This document shows, piece after piece, positions 1,689 to 15,554 of a DNA stretch of 15,554 nucleotides. The notes beneath the pieces were generated by a model, which was given only the letters and a program-made list of their open reading frames with translations, was not told the origin of the DNA and searched no databases. A program made the translations under genes and the position numbers. Origin of the DNA: Promethearchaeota archaeon (GTDB taxonomy: Archaea; Asgardarchaeota; Lokiarchaeia; Sigyniarchaeales; SOKP01); the NCBI GenBank assembly GCA_048940445.1, contig JBHLON010000056.1, positions 1-15,554 of the forward strand. Direction: 5' to 3'. Each line of letters begins with the position of its first letter. The stretch's first letter is position 1.

Positions 1689-2501
1689 ATGACGAAGATA
1701 AAAGTTAATGATATTAATATATATTATGAACTTCATGGAGATGGGTTCCCCCTTATTTTTATAATGGGACAGAGTGGCACTGTCAGCCATTTTAAGAATT
1801 CTATACTGTTTAATGATTTTGAAAAATATCTTTTTAAAAAATTTAAGACGCTACTTTTCGACAATAGAGGTATTGGACAAACAGATGACGTAGATAAACA
1901 GTATACAATAAAAACATTAGCAGATGACGTAGCAGGATTAATAGATGCCTTAAATCTTAGAAAAGTAAATATTTTAGGATTTAGCATGGGAGGTATGATC
2001 GCTCAAGAATTAATAATCAATTATCCTGAAAAAATAGAAAAATGTGTTATAGGTTCAACCCACTGTGGAAGACCAAAGTGTATTATGCCGTCTAGAGAAA
2101 CATTTTCTGGTCCACCACCTTTCCAGGAAGGAGTTACTCCAGAAGAATTAATTAAATATCAGATTCCCCTTGTATACACTGAAGATTATATCAATAGCAA
2201 CCCTAAAATTATAGATTATATAATCCAAAATCGTATATCTCATCCAGTTCCTCTTAAAGTTTATCAGAAGCAAATTAATGCTGTGCTAAGATTCAAATCA
2301 TATAAAAATTTACCAACTGTTCAAGTACCGATCTTAATTTTGCATGGAAAAGATGATCTTCTTGTACCTCCTCAGAATGCAGAAATATTGGCAGATTTAA
2401 TACCGGAAGCAAAATTGAAAATATTTGAAAATAGTGGACACGGTTTATTAACAGAGCAAACAGAGGCTGTTATGAACACGATTCTGAACTTTTTTGTATA
2501 A
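1689..2501 (+). CDS. Alpha/beta fold hydrolase
   Basis: GFSMGG nucleophile elbow, DNRGIG motif, HGKDD acid region, SGHG catalytic His. Substrate unknown. Confidence 0.92.
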   Translation: MTKIKVNDINIYYELHGDGFPLIFIMGQSGTVSHFKNSILFNDFEKYLFKKFKTLLFDNRGIGQTDDVDKQYTIKTLADDVAGLIDALNLRKVNILGFSMGGMIAQELIINYPEKIEKCVIGSTHCGRPKCIMPSRETFSGPPPFQEGVTPEELIKYQIPLVYTEDYINSNPKIIDYIIQNRISHPVPLKVYQKQINAVLRFKSYKNLPTVQVPILILHGKDDLLVPPQNAEILADLIPEAKLKIFENSGHGLLTEQTEAVMNTILNFFV

Positions 2502-2611
2502 TAAATTTAAAAGATTATTAATAAATGAAAGATTTAAAAGATAATATCTTTATATTTTTATAAAAAGTATGTATGTAATTAACCATCTATCTATAAATGG
2601 ATTGATGAAAA

Positions 2612-3073
2612 TTGGAAATAAACTTTCACAAATCGATTGATTCCTTTTCATTGGGGCATATCATTTATGGATTGATGGTAAATTGCATCTTTACCTTAGT
2701 TTCCCAATTTAATTTTTCTTATATGATAGGAATCTATTTATCACCATTAAGTATTTTTGCATTTATTGGATGGGAAATTCTTGAACATACATTAATTTAT
2801 AAATATATTTATAGTAAAGTTCTAAAGAATTGGTCTGAAACTAAGATGAACTCGATAATGGACATTGTAATTGCAGAAAGCTCTTTTTACATCGGTTTTA
2901 TAATTTTCTACGTTTTAATCCATAATGTATTAATATCAATAGCTAATTTGATTATAACGACTTGTTTAATCCCTATTGTAATTTTTATTTTAGTCAAAAT
3001 AAATAATATTAAGCAAAAAATAATTTTTGACAGGGCTTTGCTTTCAAAAGAAAGCAAGAAAAAAAGTAAATAA
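2612..3073 (+). CDS. Membrane protein, DUF2585-like putative metal-binding membrane protein
   Basis: About 4 hydrophobic segments with polar motifs D-x-FSLGH, WEILE and E-x3-NS-x2-D, resembling the DUF2585 pattern. TTG start. Confidence 0.55.
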   Translation: MEINFHKSIDSFSLGHIIYGLMVNCIFTLVSQFNFSYMIGIYLSPLSIFAFIGWEILEHTLIYKYIYSKVLKNWSETKMNSIMDIVIAESSFYIGFIIFYVLIHNVLISIANLIITTCLIPIVIFILVKINNIKQKIIFDRALLSKESKKKSK

Positions 3074-3098
3074 TTAAGGAATTTATAGATTTATTTCC

Positions 3099-3536
3099 AT
3101 GAAATATTTTAATTTAACACTTAAAATAATCCGGATGAAAAAAGAAGTATATTACCCATTATTTTCAATTTTAGGTACCTTTTTAATATATTGGCTTTTC
3201 ATACTAGCTTTTAATTTTATGAATAGTCAAATTGTCTTTCCTTTTATATTTTTAATTTTAGCTATTATTTTATTTACCTATTGTCTTGATCTACATCTCA
3301 TAATTGAGAATATTAATAATCCTACTTTAAAAAAAGTATTTTTTACTTTACTTTTAGTATCAATTATTATTATATCGAGTATGATAATTTGGTTAATTCT
3401 TTTGATCATTAATAATATTTATTACATTATTCCTATAACGATTCATATAATAATTTCAATTCTAATTTATTATATTCTCAAAAGAGAAGTTATTAAATAT
3501 TATGATATGAAAGCACATAATATTAATAAAAGTTAA
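3099..3536 (+). CDS. Hypothetical membrane protein (about 4 TM)
   Basis: 145-aa ORF, Ile/Leu/Phe rich, closely spaced between co-oriented neighbours. The start may be the ATG at 3135. Confidence 0.7.
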   Translation: MKYFNLTLKIIRMKKEVYYPLFSILGTFLIYWLFILAFNFMNSQIVFPFIFLILAIILFTYCLDLHLIIENINNPTLKKVFFTLLLVSIIIISSMIIWLILLIINNIYYIIPITIHIIISILIYYILKREVIKYYDMKAHNINKS

Positions 3537-3574
3537 AGACTTCTTGCCAAATTATAAAGTATTCGACTATATTC

Positions 3575-4519
3575 ATGCTATTAAAAAAATTAAAGCTTCT
3601 TAAGCAAAATCAAGAACGTTATTATTTAATTTATATTCTTTCTATTTCAATTATAACAATTGTTTTAATAATTCTTAGAATTCTTTTTTATTTCTTCAAA
3701 GAAGAACTATCAGGATTATTCTTCTTTGATTTATTAATAAAAAATCGAGATCTAAATTTTAAAACAAATTACAATCTAATGTATAATGGATTAATTCATT
3801 ATTATGAAGGTAATATTCTAATAAATGAAAATGCTATTTATCTTTACTTTTGGTACTTCATTTTTTACCCTTTTTACAATATACCTCTCAATGTCTCAAT
3901 GTACGTTTGGGACATTTTAAGATTTATTTCAACAATTTATATTGCAATTAATATAAAAAGAATAAGTCAGAATAGGAGAGAACTACTTTACTTTTTTCTT
4001 CTTTCGGGCGTTGGATACTTTTCAGATATGTATTTGAATAATACAAATTGGCTTATTCAATTACTTTTATTTAATTCTTATATTCAATTGAAAAAAGGTA
4101 ATAAATTGTTCTCAGGGATTTTGTTCAGTATTTCTACATTTAAGATAATCCTAATTCTATTTCCTCTAATCTTATTAATAGTTAAAAGAATTAAATTGGC
4201 GGATTTGATTTACTACTACTTACCTTTCGTTATTATAAATATTCCTTATATGATCTTCCCCGAATATTTTTTACAAATGATTTCAAATTGGTTCCAAAGC
4301 GTGAGCCTCTCATTTTCCCTTATCAGTCTTTTCCTTAACATTTGGCGCTTAATTCAGCCCGCCCAGTTAATGTATATAAGTATTATTATTCTTATTATCA
4401 TCGAAAATATAAAAAATAAGGAAAAAAAAAATAAAATTAGTTTTCTCATTTATACAATTGTTTTTATTTTATGGATTTTAATTTGGATAAGCATTTTAGA
4501 AATTGCATTTTTTTTATAA
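3575..4519 (+). CDS. Multipass membrane protein, divergent GT87 (DUF2029)/GT-C-like glycosyltransferase
   Basis: First TM followed by a loop containing an Asp (RDLNF), then YLYFWYFIFYPF (cf. YxYPP...P), DMYLNNTN (cf. GQ/GN motif) and SGILFSISTFK (cf. G...K). Motif order matches GT87-like proteins but similarity is weak. Confidence 0.5.
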   Translation: MLLKKLKLLKQNQERYYLIYILSISIITIVLIILRILFYFFKEELSGLFFFDLLIKNRDLNFKTNYNLMYNGLIHYYEGNILINENAIYLYFWYFIFYPFYNIPLNVSMYVWDILRFISTIYIAINIKRISQNRRELLYFFLLSGVGYFSDMYLNNTNWLIQLLLFNSYIQLKKGNKLFSGILFSISTFKIILILFPLILLIVKRIKLADLIYYYLPFVIINIPYMIFPEYFLQMISNWFQSVSLSFSLISLFLNIWRLIQPAQLMYISIIILIIIENIKNKEKKNKISFLIYTIVFILWILIWISILEIAFFL

Positions 4520-5060: not shown

Positions 5061-5702
5061 ATGTCTGGAGAAGATATAGTTTGTGATAAGTGTGGTAAGT
5101 TAACTAAAAGAGATAATGCATATTGTATTCATTGCGGTGCTTATTTAGGAACTCATGAAAAAACACCTTCAGAGGCACCAAAACCAAGTTTTGTTAGTGC
5201 TAAACCACCAAAAACTAAGAAAAAGCTTAACATTGGTTATAAAATATTAATATTCTTTAGCGTAGTTATAGCTGTCAATTTTTTAGTTTCATATTTTGTA
5301 ATGCTAGGGTTTCAGTTGCCTCCAAGTGGTTATTTTCCAGTATTTGGCGGAATGCTCATTTTAGTACTTATAATTGGAGGTGTGATCTGGGGTGCTGCTA
5401 GTTCAGGTAGTATTGATGTGGGTGATATGGAGGGTTGTGGGTATGCGATAGGAATAATTATAGCAATTGTAATAGGTGTTCCAATTTATATTTTTACTGT
5501 TTTAGGATCAATAGTACAAGCGATAGCTCAGTCAATTGGAAATGCAATCAATGATGCGATTAACAGCATGTTTTCCCAACTATTCTCAGGTATTGAAATC
5601 CCCGGTTTTGAGCCACTTTTATTTTTTGGTCTTTTTATGTTATTATCGTTTCTTATTGTATATTCCTATCATCTGAAAGTAAAGAAAATAAAAAAATCAT
5701 AA
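5061..5702 (+). CDS. Zinc-ribbon membrane protein with C-terminal PGF/Loki-CTERM-type sorting signal
   Basis: N-terminal CDKC-x10-CIHC, Pro/Lys linker, three TM segments, then IPGF (aa 180-183, nt 5598-5609) + hydrophobic helix + basic tail KVKKIKKS. Confidence 0.85.
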   Translation: MSGEDIVCDKCGKLTKRDNAYCIHCGAYLGTHEKTPSEAPKPSFVSAKPPKTKKKLNIGYKILIFFSVVIAVNFLVSYFVMLGFQLPPSGYFPVFGGMLILVLIIGGVIWGAASSGSIDVGDMEGCGYAIGIIIAIVIGVPIYIFTVLGSIVQAIAQSIGNAINDAINSMFSQLFSGIEIPGFEPLLFFGLFMLLSFLIVYSYHLKVKKIKKS

Positions 5703-5715
5703 TTTTTTTTCTTTT
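5703..5715 (+). terminator. Oligo-T tract, candidate archaeal-type intrinsic terminator
   Basis: TTTTTTTTCTTTT immediately after the TAA of 5061..5702. Confidence 0.4.
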
Positions 5716-5749
5716 AAATTACAACATTAACATTCTTAGTGAATTAAAG

Positions 5750-6448
5750 GTGAAGCAAAGTCAAAATTACCAGTATAATTCTCAAAGATTAATATTTAAT
5801 TTTAAGGATAAAAAATATACCTTTTCTTTTTCCCAAATTCTAATTTTCCTCGTAGTCAGTCCTTTACTATCAATTCTAATCTATTTATTTCTTAAGTTAA
5901 GAATTAATTATTGGATATATAACCTTACATCTGCTCAGATAGTACTCATCCTAAATGCATTATTTAATCTAAATTCGGAGGTAATTATATCTTCAAATCT
6001 TTCCATATTCCCTTCGATTTTTATACCTAATAATCCTTTTAATGAAAACTATGCGATTACTGCTAATTGTATTGCAGCTCCTGTTTTTAGTATCATGATT
6101 TCAATTATAATTTGCATACCATCATCTAAATTACTATTAGAAAAAAAAGAATTTGTATGGAGAAAAGTAAAAGCTTTAATTGTTTCAATAGGTGGCATCT
6201 ATGTTCTTAATATTTTTCGAATTGTTTTTCTGATCTTTTTTAATTTTAACGGAATTCCATTTGAATTCATTCATGAATCTCTTTTCTTTTTATCTGCTGT
6301 TATTGGTGCTTTATATTTTGTAATCATACTTAAACTATGGTTACCAGAATCCTTTATTTCGATTTATTATTTTTATCGCTTAATTGTAAAAAAGTGGAAA
6401 ACTCGTGGAAGTTTTCAAAAAGAAAACGATAATATAATAAGATATTGA
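5750..6448 (+). CDS. Archaeosortase/exosortase family protein (archaeosortase H-like, divergent)
   Basis: Multipass protein with the family Cys-Arg-His triad in canonical order and context: ITANC107, LN154IFR157IV, FEFIH175. It also has the P...WRK segment between the helices. GTG start uncertain. Confidence 0.85.
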   Translation: MKQSQNYQYNSQRLIFNFKDKKYTFSFSQILIFLVVSPLLSILIYLFLKLRINYWIYNLTSAQIVLILNALFNLNSEVIISSNLSIFPSIFIPNNPFNENYAITANCIAAPVFSIMISIIICIPSSKLLLEKKEFVWRKVKALIVSIGGIYVLNIFRIVFLIFFNFNGIPFEFIHESLFFLSAVIGALYFVIILKLWLPESFISIYYFYRLIVKKWKTRGSFQKENDNIIRY

Positions 6449-6501: not shown

Positions 6502-7299
6502 TTATTTTCTAAAATGATTTATAGCTACAATTATGATTCCAATGATAATTATAATCATCGCTATCAGTGCAGTTATAGCAATTGTTAGATTTAATGGAAG
6601 TTGTTTTAAAAGTATGCCTAGGGAAGCCCACACCACAACAAGACTATAAGCAATATCTTTTCTGAGAAGCAACATTAATAATGTTATTATTACTACAATA
6701 GCAATTACTACAATAGTTAAAATTATTGCTAATAAACTTGGGAAAGTTACTCCATTTGGGACTCCGAAGGTTACTAATAAAGCAGTGACATTTGCAATAG
6801 TGGCAACAGTGATCCATCCAAGATATACGCTAAATGGAATATGTACTGTCCATTTTTCAATTTTTGAAACATCAGCTTTACCAATATTTAATCTAAGGTA
6901 AATCAAGAGTAACATTATCAATATTACCAACATAGCTCCCAGAGATAATGGAATAAGTTGATAATGCCAGAATAAGATCCATGTAAGATTGGCTAAATTA
7001 CTGATAATGAAGAAAACGCTAATCTTTTCTAAATAAGGCATCTCAACCTTATCTGACTTAAAGATGTCTCTAAATTGATATATTGAAAACAAGCCAAGGA
7101 GAATGTATATTATACCCCAGATGGAAAATGTAAGCCCTGCAGGAACGAATAAATTGGGTATAGCATCCGATAGTTCTTGAGTAGTTCCATAACCAAGAGG
7201 TAAACTAATTGCTAAGTAGTTTATAATGACAGCGGCAATAAAAGTACCAAGGTTTAAAATTTGTAGGATTAATTTTGTAGTTTTATTCACATTTTTCAC
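6502..7299 (-). CDS. TspO/MBR-related tryptophan-rich membrane protein (long form)
   Basis: PAGLTFSIWGIIY, NLTWILFW and PFSVYLGWITVATIAN motifs; about 8 TM segments. Confidence 0.8.
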   Translation of the reverse strand: MKNVNKTTKLILQILNLGTFIAAVIINYLAISLPLGYGTTQELSDAIPNLFVPAGLTFSIWGIIYILLGLFSIYQFRDIFKSDKVEMPYLEKISVFFIISNLANLTWILFWHYQLIPLSLGAMLVILIMLLLIYLRLNIGKADVSKIEKWTVHIPFSVYLGWITVATIANVTALLVTFGVPNGVTFPSLLAIILTIVVIAIVVIITLLMLLLRKDIAYSLVVVWASLGILLKQLPLNLTIAITALIAMIIIIIGIIIVAINHFRK

Positions 7300-13109: not shown

Positions 13110-15554
13110 TTATTGGTTCTTTTTTAGTTTGACCCCTATATTATAAGGCGATACTATGAGTTTCTTTTTGATTAATGTATCTAAAGCCTCTAAAACAATA
13201 TCCTTATTTTTTTCATGAATTTGTGCAATTGGAGCCTGTAAACTAAACTCTTTATTTTGTTTGGTTATCGATAATATTACGTTATATAACCGTATCTCCA
13301 TTTTCTTTAATTCACCTGAATTTATAATTGCGTCAACGTAATTTTTATCTTCATTAACATTAAACTTCTTAGCATAGTGAAGAAATAAAAATTGATTTAT
13401 AATAGAAATTATATCATTTTTTATATAGGTGATATTCCCTACAAATGTAATAAATTTCTCACCGTATTGGGAAGTTAAAGCTTTAGTTAGTAAATACAGT
13501 TGTTTTTTAAGCCTTTCAGAGCTTTTTTCCTTTAAAAATAGGAGAAGGCGAAGTGACTCATAATCACAAACAAGCAATTGAAAAATATTAAAATCTAATT
13601 CTATAATATATTTTGAATACTCAGAAAGAGATTCGGTATTTTTATACTTATTAAACTCTTTTTTAATTAGAACTTGACTAAAATTTGTTATTGCTTGAAT
13701 AAATCCTGCTACCATAAAAGAATCATCATCGTTTTCAAAAATTCCTATTTCTTGAGTATATATCGGGAGACCACTCTCTTTTTGGATTAACATCAATGCT
13801 TCGATATTATTAACATCTTTATAAACTTGAATTTTGTCTATTAATTCTGCTTCCTTTTTCCTTCTCTTTGGCAATATAATATAAGATCTTAAACTTAGGA
13901 CTCCTAATACCCCAGCTAGTACAACTAATCCGATTATTATCAATAATGGTAAGAAATTTGGTGATTCGATTTGGTATATTCCAATAATAAATGAAAACGC
14001 TGTAGTTTTATAGATGATATCCTCTTTTGAGACCATTATCTGCATCTGGTAAGTTCCACTACCTTCAGCAGGTAATTTTAACTTTAATTCATAAATCCCA
14101 TTTCCTAATTCATTGAAAAAGTCATTATTATATTTCCAATTATAAGAAACTGTCGCATTTTCAATATAATTTTCAACTCCTTGTTCTGTTATATTCAATC
14201 GTATAGTAATTTGATCCCCAGCGTTTCCATAAATAATATTGTCAAATCCTATCGGTGTTATATGAAATTCAATCTGTTTAACAAAAATTTGAAGAGCAAA
14301 AGTAGTAGTAGTATAATTATTTTGCACAAATCTTAAATAGACATAATTGGGTCCAATTGAAAAAAATGGTGAACTAACAATTATTGATAAATTATACCAA
14401 TAGTCCATAGATTCTGTAAGTTCTATCTCATTTTCACCATTTATGAATGTTATATTTCCGCCGGATAAAAACTGTGCATCAATTTCAGCATAAGCTCTGC
14501 ATGAAAGATTAAATATTTGATTATAAAAGATTTCGAGCAAATAATTTTCTGGGACATTCTGATAATTAATTTGAGTAGTAAGATCTATATTTTGTGCTCG
14601 AATATATAATTGAAAAGCAAAGATTCTAGTACTATAATTTGTTTGTTCAAATCTTAAGAAAATAGTATTTATACCAGAATCAAAATACATCCCGTCTAAA
14701 ACTATGGATTTAGTAAAGTAAGTAGAAGGTGTCTCTGTTAGATTCACCATATAATTGTTGCTTATCAAGGTCATAATCCCCCCAGATAGATATGTGCCTC
14801 CTAAAATAGTGCGGACTCTTGTTGAAATATTGATTTGTTGTTGGAAATAAGCTTCAATTAGAGAATTTTCAAAAATTGGAACTGAGTTAATACTGACTGA
14901 AATATTTACTTCTTTATTATTAATTATAACTATAATATTCTCAAAAGCAGTTTCATAAGAAGCACGCTTAAATGTTATCAAGACGGAGTAATAATCAATA
15001 CTCATGCCCGTAGTATCTAGAGTAATATCAAATTGATTTGATATAGGTGTAATGAAGTAAGAACCTTGCCACAGAACATTGCAATTAGCTCCAGGAATCA
15101 ATTCACCTGAATTTTCATCTGTATAATTTGCCCTTATCTGAACCATAGCACCTTGGTATACTGAAATCAAACTAACATTCACATAAGCGATAGTTGGAAT
15201 GGGATGCACTAAAAGGGTGAGAAATTCATTAGCATCTCCATAGTTTGTCATATTAGCAAAAATTTCAATAGTATAAGATTCAAGATATCCTTGAGTAGGG
15301 ATACTTTCTGTAGAAAAATCTAGTGTATAAGTTCCATTATTGTGATCTGTTACGTTATAAGAATTAAACCAATCAGTTGAGATATTAGCAGGCCATAATA
15401 GAGTTTTAGTAATAGCTCCTCTCACATTTATTCGGCACGAAACAATAGTATTTGCACTCGTTTCAATTACGTTATGGGATAATTCTATCTCTAATGATTG
15501 TGGAATTACTTTTAAATGAATTAAATTATTAATTGTTTGATTTTCATAAAATAA
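13110..15554 (-). CDS. Large single-pass surface protein (5'-truncated): Ig-like beta-rich repeats, TM helix, cytoplasmic longin-like domain and possible winged helix
   Basis: The frame stays open for 43 codons upstream of GTG 15425 to the window edge (LFYENQTINN...CRINV), so the real start is outside. Many N-x-S/T sequons, TM at about 13872-13955 followed by PKRRKK, then LMLIQKESGLPIY...MVAGFIQAITNFS. Confidence 0.85.
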   Translation of the reverse strand, partial: LFYENQTINNLIHLKVIPQSLEIELSHNVIETSANTIVSCRINVRGAITKTLLWPANISTDWFNSYNVTDHNNGTYTLDFSTESIPTQGYLESYTIEIFANMTNYGDANEFLTLLVHPIPTIAYVNVSLISVYQGAMVQIRANYTDENSGELIPGANCNVLWQGSYFITPISNQFDITLDTTGMSIDYYSVLITFKRASYETAFENIIVIINNKEVNISVSINSVPIFENSLIEAYFQQQINISTRVRTILGGTYLSGGIMTLISNNYMVNLTETPSTYFTKSIVLDGMYFDSGINTIFLRFEQTNYSTRIFAFQLYIRAQNIDLTTQINYQNVPENYLLEIFYNQIFNLSCRAYAEIDAQFLSGGNITFINGENEIELTESMDYWYNLSIIVSSPFFSIGPNYVYLRFVQNNYTTTTFALQIFVKQIEFHITPIGFDNIIYGNAGDQITIRLNITEQGVENYIENATVSYNWKYNNDFFNELGNGIYELKLKLPAEGSGTYQMQIMVSKEDIIYKTTAFSFIIGIYQIESPNFLPLLIIIGLVVLAGVLGVLSLRSYIILPKRRKKEAELIDKIQVYKDVNNIEALMLIQKESGLPIYTQEIGIFENDDDSFMVAGFIQAITNFSQVLIKKEFNKYKNTESLSEYSKYIIELDFNIFQLLVCDYESLRLLLFLKEKSSERLKKQLYLLTKALTSQYGEKFITFVGNITYIKNDIISIINQFLFLHYAKKFNVNEDKNYVDAIINSGELKKMEIRLYNVILSITKQNKEFSLQAPIAQIHEKNKDIVLEALDTLIKKKLIVSPYNIGVKLKKNQ
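14274..14915 (-). repeat. Two tandem ~107-aa protein repeats in the ectodomain
   Basis: ENSLIE/ENYLLE, YLSGG/FLSGG (107 aa apart), NLTE/ELTE, F.SG.N...LRFEQTNY/F.IGPN...LRFVQNNY. Confidence 0.8.

Follow-up and report, generated by a model that had tools for sequence, protein, structure and literature searches.

A small archaeosortase paralogue and its putative dedicated substrate in a conserved gene cassette of Promethearchaeota

The stretch of DNA considered here, the window, comprises 15,554 nucleotides (29% G+C overall) of contig C19 of the source genome G000, a Loki-type Promethearchaeota archaeon. It contains two neighbouring genes on the forward strand, P0001 (5061–5702), which ends in a putative PGF-type sorting signal, and P0002 (5750–6448), which encodes a member of the exosortase/archaeosortase superfamily. 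From sequence comparison and by analogy with known systems, P0002 is likely to be a dedicated archaeosortase and P0001 its single cognate substrate, which would be cleaved and anchored. The original prediction had described the two genes as a dedicated processing module. The pair has stood, but its extent is amended here, as the conserved unit is a cassette of five genes, the three further members accompanying the pair in 16–17 of 20 loci.

Architecture and linkage of the gene pair

P0001 starts with ATG and encodes 213 amino acids; its C-terminal sequence is SGIEIPGFEPLLFFGLFMLLSFLIVYSYHLKVKKIKKS, in which SGIEIPGFEP is followed by an 18-residue hydrophobic helix and by HLKVKKIKKS. P0002 encodes 232 amino acids from a GTG that aligns with the ATG-encoded Met1 (MKESQ) of its orthologues. 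Both genes lie on the same strand, separated by a spacer of 47 nt (5703–5749); the gap is 72–98 nt in the orthologous loci. Direct reading of the sequence confirmed the IPGF motif, transmembrane (TM) helix and basic tail that had been claimed for the upstream, co-oriented gene. The triad assigned to the downstream gene was equally confirmed by reading its codons on the forward strand, namely Cys107 (tgt, 6068–6070), the putative nucleophile, in N-C-I-A-A, Arg157 (cga, 6218–6220) in N-I-F-R, and His175 (cat, 6272–6274) in F-I-H-E-S within an outer loop free of lysine and arginine (K/R).

Orthologues of both proteins were searched for in a sample of 300 genomes of the phylum. P0002 orthologues (59–64% identity) were present in 14 of them, all belonging to three genera of one taxonomic family, and P0001 orthologues were found in exactly these 14 and nowhere else, always on the same contig and strand and 72–98 nt upstream of the sortase gene. 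For a second sample, the P0001 alignment served as the pattern with which all GTDB species genomes were scanned. This returned 20 loci, mostly labelled Promethearchaeota or Promethearchaeia with a few other or generic labels, and with no cultured Lokiarchaeia genome among them; a P0002-type gene lay directly downstream in 19 of the 20. The remaining locus, L060, has a third copy of P0001, in a metagenome-assembled genome (MAG) whose contig L062 holds two tandem pairs. The genes outside the cassette vary from locus to locus, with DnaK/GrpE-like neighbours in some and an enolase-superfamily gene in others, and the adjacency is kept across at least three genera despite these different flanks. Because it recurs in this way in both samples, the gene arrangement is more than chance, and the synteny expected of a dedicated target–sortase pair was thereby found.

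The pair has also been duplicated in tandem in L054, in L062 and on contig C214 of genome G228. The upstream sortase copy is shortened to about 106 amino acids in L054 and G228, and both L062 targets are without the zinc ribbon described below. In L054 and L062 the duplicated targets are accompanied by duplicated sortases.

Haft (2023, 10.1101/2023.06.07.544157) recognises dedicated one-to-one sorting systems by consecutive genes and by residues that are conserved within the helix of the signal. The dedicated reading of P0002 and P0001 is supported because the pair shows these features, with adjacency in 14 of 14 and 19 of 20 cases and a single match to the tail in the genome.

P0002 and archaeosortase H

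P0002 belongs to the exosortase/archaeosortase superfamily. In hidden Markov model (HMM) searches it passes the signature TIGR04178 with 28.7 bits at a cutoff of 23, as was to be expected of a sortase; among its orthologues, P0013 reaches 32.0 bits and P0030, with 20.7 bits, stays slightly below the cutoff. The predicted fold is likewise that of the family. The AlphaFold model, calculated from a 19-sequence alignment (pLDDT 79.9, pTM 0.72), has as its nearest folds in the ESM-Atlas two Promethearchaeota exosortase/archaeosortase clusters with template-modelling scores of 0.87 and 0.82; the scores are 0.64 (0.79 by target) against an Exosortase_EpsH cluster and 0.68 against an archaeosortase A cluster. 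Neither a family-profile sequence search nor a Foldseek search with the model returned a relevant solved relative in the PDB. The P0002 family comprises 45 clusters of ~220 amino acids with 53–90% identity, and its named members come from MAGs of Promethearchaeota, 'Odinarchaeota' or 'Hermodarchaeota'. The origin of the homologues in Promethearchaeota (Asgard) MAGs agrees with the Asgard host that had been considered probable.

The triad of exosortases and archaeosortases consists of nearly invariant Cys, Arg and His residues (Haft 2023). Cys107, Arg157 and His175 are invariant, as is Asn154, in 18 orthologues of P0002, in the paralogue encoded on contig C30 of the same genome (see below), in bona fide archaeosortase H (ArtH) and in the other small paralogues. 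The residues around the cysteine differ by class, being N-C-[IVLF]-A-[AGV]-H in the P0002 family, F-C-T-G-[IV]-Q in bona fide ArtH and G-C-T-G-F in the C30 paralogue. The C-I-A divergence at the cysteine, noted originally, is therefore real, with N-C-I-A-A in P0002 against F-C-T-G in bona fide ArtH. By analogy, P0002 is probably a membrane-embedded Cys/Arg/His protease and transpeptidase.

The original prediction had placed the pair beside archaeosortase A (ArtA) and its PGF-CTERM targets. The assignment to exosortases and archaeosortases held, but the closest named family is ArtH with its Loki-CTERM signal, not ArtA with PGF-CTERM. The best named match of P0002 is the ArtH model NF041736 (99.5 bits, under the equivalog cutoff of 200), while its score with the ArtA model TIGR04125 (23.3 bits) does not reach the cutoff of 75. 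The ArtH N-terminal domain, NF041739, was not found by HMM search in P0002, in P0001 or in the open frame upstream of P0002. Bona fide ArtH is a longer protein of 345–446 amino acids which carries NF041739 and scores 317–327 bits on NF041736 in the sister genomes. In a maximum-likelihood tree (IQ-TREE), ArtH and the C30 variant are split from the P0002 family and the other small paralogues with 98/93 support, and the members of the P0002 family group together with 100/99. Judged by its sequence, with the sub-cutoff score, the absence of the N-terminal domain, the C-I-A motif and the separate clade, P0002 is not archaeosortase H proper.

Of 71 genomes in the taxonomic family, 63 have an ArtH that scores above its cutoff, whereas P0002 is patchy (about 15 of 68 family genomes, ~22%). 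In a 70-genome sample of the family, ArtH coexists with the cassette in eight of ten carriers, the two without it being G000 and G077. Because ArtH is widespread beside P0002 and the tree separates the two clades, P0002 is an accessory enzyme and a specialised paralogue, as had been proposed. The additional housekeeping sortase looked for in this connection was present in the family at large as canonical ArtH, but this genome holds only a split variant that scores below the cutoff. No canonical ArtH (at least 200 bits) was found in its assembly, which is 93.4% complete. Its second archaeosortase lies on contig C30 at ~23600–24775 (L005:1243–2418). The sortase reading frame encodes 308 amino acids, scores 136–137 bits against the cutoff of 200, has the C-T-G motif and bears an extra C-terminal stretch of ~90 amino acids, and the NF041739 domain is encoded in a separate 78-amino-acid open reading frame (ORF) immediately upstream (79 bits, cutoff 55). 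Similar forms of 310–330 amino acids occur in G077, G065 and G246.

These data bear on the idea that P0002 is the general Loki-CTERM sortase of the organism and that its adjacency to P0001 is functionally meaningless. In its favour are the lack of canonical ArtH in the assembly and the 21 Loki-CTERM proteins of the genome, which need a processing enzyme. We nevertheless hold it to be highly improbable. P0002 occurs in a minority of the family genomes and always with P0001, next to which it stays in at least three genera while the flanking genes change; ArtH accompanies it in most of the carriers sampled, and in G000 the C30 locus provides another ArtH-like enzyme together with the N-terminal domain.

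Five more distant P0002-like sortases (39–42% identity) were found, each adjoining a non-homologous protein with a PGF-type tail (loci L022–L026, in genomes G125, G040, G279, G270 and G204). The neighbouring tails carry NIPGFDF in L022 and L023, RIPVYNP in L024, NFPGFEPF in L025 and YYPGFPP in L026. In the tree, the L025 sortase joins the P0002 clade, though by a long branch, and next to it is encoded a secreted-type protein of 298 amino acids in which NFPGFEPF, with the same PGFEP signature as P0001, precedes a TM helix and a basic tail. The pairing of this enzyme with a non-homologous PGFEP protein speaks for an enzyme clade that follows the signal and not the cargo. One of the partners in these five loci is a mini membrane protein of 125 amino acids, an ArsR-like winged helix-turn-helix gene lies near the L022 and L023 pairs, and the L026 sortase copy is interrupted by stop codons.

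The P0001 tail and its possible processing

P0001 combines a zinc ribbon with three TM helices, a short amphipathic helix on the outer side and the putative C-terminal sorting signal. The zinc ribbon (CxxC...CxxC; Cys8, 11, 22 and 25; 5082–5135) gave the only Pfam matches, sub-threshold ones to zinc ribbons at residues 6–27, and NCBI names the relatives of P0001 'zinc-ribbon domain-containing protein'. All four of its cysteines are invariant in 14 orthologues, as is Cys126. Hydropathy and charge predict TM helices at residues ~62–80, 94–112, 127–148 and 185–203, with both termini inside, an N-terminus containing 12 K/R in the cytoplasm, outer loops (81–93 and 149–181) free of K/R and a cytoplasmic basic tail. 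According to this topology, the last helix has the PGF motif at its outer end. The structural model of P0001 is of low confidence (pLDDT 62.6) and was used for secondary structure alone; its helices agree with hydropathy, and a helix break is seen at 176–184.

The strongest conservation is in the tail. Residues 178–209 show 73% mean pairwise identity, compared with 45% for residues 1–177. In the signature E179-I-P-G-F-E-P185 (5595–5615), at the outer boundary of the last TM helix, E179, P181, G182, F183, E184 and P185 are invariant, and so are L187, F188, L191, S196, Y201, Y203, H204 and L205 in the segment made up of the last TM helix (186–203) and the basic tail KVKKIKKS (5616–5699). Both the PGF motif and the Cys/Arg/His triad, whose conservation had been in question, are thus invariant in the homologues. 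The tail corresponds to the generic tripartite sorting signal (Haft 2023), with a signature motif predicted to lie outside, an 18-residue helix and a terminal basic cluster.

An exhaustive profile search with P0001 against 1.84 billion representatives returned about a dozen full-length clusters, all remaining matches being to the zinc ribbon alone. Natural short forms of 85–86, 140–145 and 182 amino acids exist which are without the zinc ribbon and the first three TM helices but keep [IV]-E-[IV]-P-G-F-E-[PL], the helix and Y-x-Y-H. It is because these parts are kept that the conserved core of the family is taken to be the short outer helix plus the tripartite tail. An ESM-Atlas search with P0001 returned generic zinc-ribbon membrane proteins alone (scores up to 0.85, structural template-modelling scores up to 0.35) and was discarded. 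Residues 5–150, i.e. the ribbon and three TM helices, match the N-termini of ~790-amino-acid proteins from other Asgard families (G280:C17, G196:C67 and G262:C22) with E-values of 3e-9 to 3e-7, and from its sequence this part of P0001 may be a membrane module that can be reused.

Convincing proteins of the Loki-CTERM type, with a signal peptide, (G)IPG[YF], a TM helix and a basic tail, number 21 in the genome. Several of these pass the Loki-CTERM model NF033507 with 25–29.5 bits (cutoff 19.9), whereas neither P0001 nor its last 49 residues gave a match to it at E-values up to 10. With an unfiltered HMM made from the genome's own 21 tails, P0001 was not among the best 45 matches. Conversely, an HMM of the P0001-family tail scored 76.4 bits with P0001 and 13.9 bits with the next ORF in the genome. 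By these reciprocal results, the tail is single-copy in the genome and adjoins the sole enzyme of the P0002 subfamily. Of the two model matches that had been looked for, the one to the sortase signature was obtained and the one between the tail and the curated PGF- or Loki-CTERM models was not, hence the signal is regarded as private. Searches of Pfam and NCBIfam found no curated model for P0001, its tail or the P0002 subfamily.

The reaction envisaged follows the one proposed for ArtA, in which the active-site cysteine forms an acyl-enzyme with release of the C-terminal helix, and the amine of archaetidylethanolamine resolves the acyl-enzyme (Abdul-Halim 2020, PMC7157517). P0001 would insert with four membrane helices and a cytoplasmic zinc ribbon, placing E-x-P-G-F-E-P at the outer end of the last helix while the basic tail returns to the cytoplasm. 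Cys107, Arg157 and His175 of P0002 are predicted to face the outside as well. As in the ArtA model, Cys107 would attack within or beside PGF, the last helix with Y-x-Y-H-L and the basic tail would be released, and the acyl-enzyme would be resolved onto a membrane acceptor, leaving the new C-terminus of P0001 covalently anchored. We infer in this way the binding of P0001 by P0002, its cleavage, the cut site, the acceptor and the roles of the three other cassette genes.

A complex of P0001 and P0002 was predicted in three runs with a median interface score (ipSAE) of 0.47 (0.45–0.61); the best control scored 0.00. Contacts agree between the runs to at least 68%, and the partner pLDDT values are at least 67. 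The ipSAE mark is reached by 58 of 80 solved complexes and by 2 of 110 mismatched pairs, and scores of up to 0.60 comprise just 7 of those 80 complexes together with both passing mismatches. The modelling thus gives weak support to the pairing.

Several observations weigh against a dedicated sortase that cleaves P0001. The carriers are interrelated and the two genome samples overlap, so that 14 of 14 and 19 of 20 overstate the independent support for linkage. The curated PGF-CTERM and Loki-CTERM models give no match to the P0001 tail. P0001 is unlike known archaeosortase substrates in that it lacks a signal peptide, shows hardly any ectodomain and crosses the membrane with three further helices, and cleavage would leave its membrane attachment without obvious change. 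Since canonical ArtH was not found in this genome, P0002 may also handle other tails here. Finally, the strong conservation through the helix and Y-x-YHL fits a stable, uncleaved interaction equally well.

The last point leads to a different role for P0001, which might remain uncleaved as a stable partner or regulatory subunit of P0002, a pseudo-substrate or adaptor with its tail permanently docked in the substrate groove. By way of the zinc ribbon, a cue from inside the cell would then govern how active the sortase is or where it is located, and the sortase would act on other proteins. For a signal that is discarded, the last helix, over its whole length, and Y-x-YHL are unusually well conserved; P0001 has no ectodomain as cargo, and P0002 is without the ArtH N-terminal domain, for which the separate upstream ORF of C30 offers a precedent as an accessory subunit. 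P0001 itself, however, gave no HMM signal for that domain; its replacement of the ArtH N-terminal domain was rejected for want of HMM support and is kept solely as part of this alternative. The ribbon and TM helices 1–3 are dispensable in the members of 85–86 and 140–182 amino acids, the tripartite tail never is, and the motif has exactly the architecture and topology of a sorting signal. A sortase that groups with the P0002 clade, that of L025, moreover adjoins a conventional secreted-type protein with the PGFEP tail. An uncleaved partner is therefore considered unlikely.

The same conservation could also mean that the ~28-residue C-terminal piece (helix, Y-x-YHL and basic tail) is released as a functional membrane micro-protein or signal, the rest of P0001 being a carrier or scaffold. 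The segment is the best-conserved part of the P0001 family, and the N-terminal part is variable and reducible to one helix. We consider this very unlikely, as the exosortase/archaeosortase papers cited here contain no precedent and none of the cassette genes suggests a peptide receptor. Conserved residues in the signal helix are, besides, expected where a sorting enzyme is intramembrane (Haft 2023), so that recognition by P0002 predicts them as well. The reading of P0001 as the cleaved and anchored substrate of P0002 is consequently preferred.

The five-gene cassette and its relation to known systems

Three further genes complete the cassette. P0048 (3099–3536, forward strand) encodes a small polytopic membrane protein of 145 amino acids and lies beside the pair in 17 of the 20 loci. 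P0049 (3575–4519, forward strand; 17 of 20) encodes a GT87-like membrane glycosyltransferase of 314 amino acids, of the putative GT-C fold type, and P0050 (4525–4935, reverse strand; 16–17 of 20) a second small polytopic membrane protein, of 136 amino acids. All three stay linked to the pair even where their order is rearranged, as in L062 and L063. Among 70 family genomes, P0048 occurs solely in cassette carriers and solely at the cassette locus, and the same is true of P0050 apart from one degraded copy. Orthologues of P0049 (52–65% identity) are found at the cassette alone; paralogues (34–50%) are present in most family genomes. P0049 scores 24.1 bits with Pfam GT87 (PF09594), slightly below the gathering cutoff of 25, and in the ESM-Atlas, with a feature score of 0.99, 28 of its 30 nearest clusters are GT87. 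Neither P0048 nor P0050 matched a Pfam or NCBIfam family. The GT87-like enzyme and the two small membrane proteins may be involved in the synthesis or presentation of the acceptor, or their target may be the matured product.

With such an enzyme in the cassette, a self-contained pathway of protein-to-glycolipid anchoring, functionally analogous to glycosylphosphatidylinositol (GPI) anchoring in eukaryotes, can be envisaged. P0049 would build the glycolipid on the outer leaflet with P0048 and P0050 as helpers, and P0002 would remove the hydrophobic signal of P0001 and join the new C-terminus to the glycolipid. This analogy-based proposal is decidedly doubtful, and the likeness would be one of logic only, nothing having been found that links the cassette to the GPI machinery by descent.

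Compared with ArtH (NF041736/NF041739) and Loki-CTERM (NF033507), the pair has the fold, the Cys/Arg/His and N-x-x-R motifs and the Promethearchaeota lineage in common, and in both signals a core IPG[FY] precedes a TM helix and a basic tail. It differs in the lower score (99.5 against 317–327 bits), the missing N-terminal domain, C-I-A-A in place of C-T-G-[IV]-Q, the separate clade (98/93), the patchy occurrence as opposed to a near-universal one, the one-to-one relation with an adjacent target instead of a one-to-many relation, and a tail that Loki-CTERM models do not detect. The literature searched made no mention of Loki-CTERM, although the search was not cleanly aimed at archaeosortase H.

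With ArtA and the PGF-CTERM proteins of Haloferax volcanii (TIGR04125) the pair shares a PGF motif abutting a TM helix with a basic tail. Linkage of sortase genes to acceptor-making enzymes also has a precedent there, as artA of Methanosarcina clusters with pssA and pssD, which make the acceptor (Abdul-Halim 2020, PMC7157517). The linked enzyme is here a GT87-like glycosyltransferase and not PssA or PssD, and P0002 remains far below the ArtA cutoff (23.3 against 75 bits). ArtA, furthermore, has many secreted substrates including the S-layer glycoprotein, whereas the candidate here is one polytopic zinc-ribbon protein without an ectodomain.

The organisation also resembles that of JDVT-CTERM and MrtJ, in which adjacency is near-universal, there is about one signal per genome and residues in the TM helix of the signal are conserved (Haft, 10.1101/2023.06.07.544157). 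MrtJ, however, is a CPBP/Rce1-like protease and P0002 an exosortase/archaeosortase, found here in an archaeal lineage and with a multi-pass target.

In cassettes of the XrtG type, a small sortase is combined with a single target and one or more membrane glycosyltransferases, as in the cassette described here. Their glycosyltransferase is of the GT2 family and their target is secreted, while the present enzyme appears to be of the GT-C/GT87 type and the target is not secreted. To our knowledge, archaeosortases are known experimentally only from haloarchaeal ArtA, which lipid-anchors secreted surface proteins. Unusual in the present case are the sorting signal PGFEP...Y-x-YH, which is private, a 'cargo' that is polytopic, bears a zinc ribbon and has hardly any ectodomain, and the strict linkage to a GT-C-type glycosyltransferase.

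With a single enzyme, a single very small substrate and a signal reserved to them, the cassette is a compact, testable case among the prokaryotes closest to eukaryotes. The rules by which an archaeosortase recognises its signal could be worked out with it, and the natural 85-amino-acid mini-substrates, as found in locus L063, are ideal reporters for this purpose. If P0001 is indeed cleaved and anchored by P0002, processing of the sortase type extends to targets that span the membrane several times, carry a zinc ribbon in the cytoplasm and have no ectodomain; such a target suggests that a membrane protein is being remodelled or regulated, not displayed at the surface. The identity of the acceptor is the question raised by the strict linkage with the glycosyltransferase, and interest would grow if the acceptor were a glycolipid. 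If the biochemistry amounts to plain lipid anchoring, the finding would be a useful but incremental new subfamily.

Some minor features of the window were noted. Upstream of the GTG, the P0002 frame continues without a stop through 46 codons (5612–5749, forward strand), overlapping the P0001 tail in another frame and reading as hydrophobic, and the ArtH protein search alignment ran into these codons. A frameshift fusion and a remnant N-terminal domain were both rejected, since there is neither a start codon nor an NF041739 signal, and the stretch is unconserved, its frame being open for just 1–9 codons in the orthologous loci. By its composition, it is probably a chance occurrence in T-rich, membrane-coding DNA.

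Directly 3' of the P0001 stop codon (within 5700–5749) there is a T run, TTTTTTTTCTTTT, and TTTAAAT stands ~30 nt 5' of the GTG of P0002. The two elements might serve as archaeal terminator and TATA box, so that substrate and enzyme could be expressed unequally, but in DNA of 29% G+C they may equally be chance. A scan with bacterial promoter and terminator models gave counts equal to the shuffle expectation, such models being inapplicable to archaea.

G+C falls to 20–24% at 2500–4500, where P0048, P0049 and the ORF 2612–3073 are located, compared with 29–37% elsewhere in the window. This is consistent with membrane proteins rich in I, L, F, N and K or with a horizontally moving cassette. In the 20 loci, neither the upstream ORF 2612–3073 nor the downstream genes are conserved with the cassette. 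The ORF 6502–7299 (reverse strand, 265 amino acids), which matched no Pfam or NCBIfam family, has counterparts with 66–75% identity in just 3 of the 20 loci and is placed outside the cassette. A large ORF at 13110–15554 (reverse strand, 771–814 amino acids) runs off the window.

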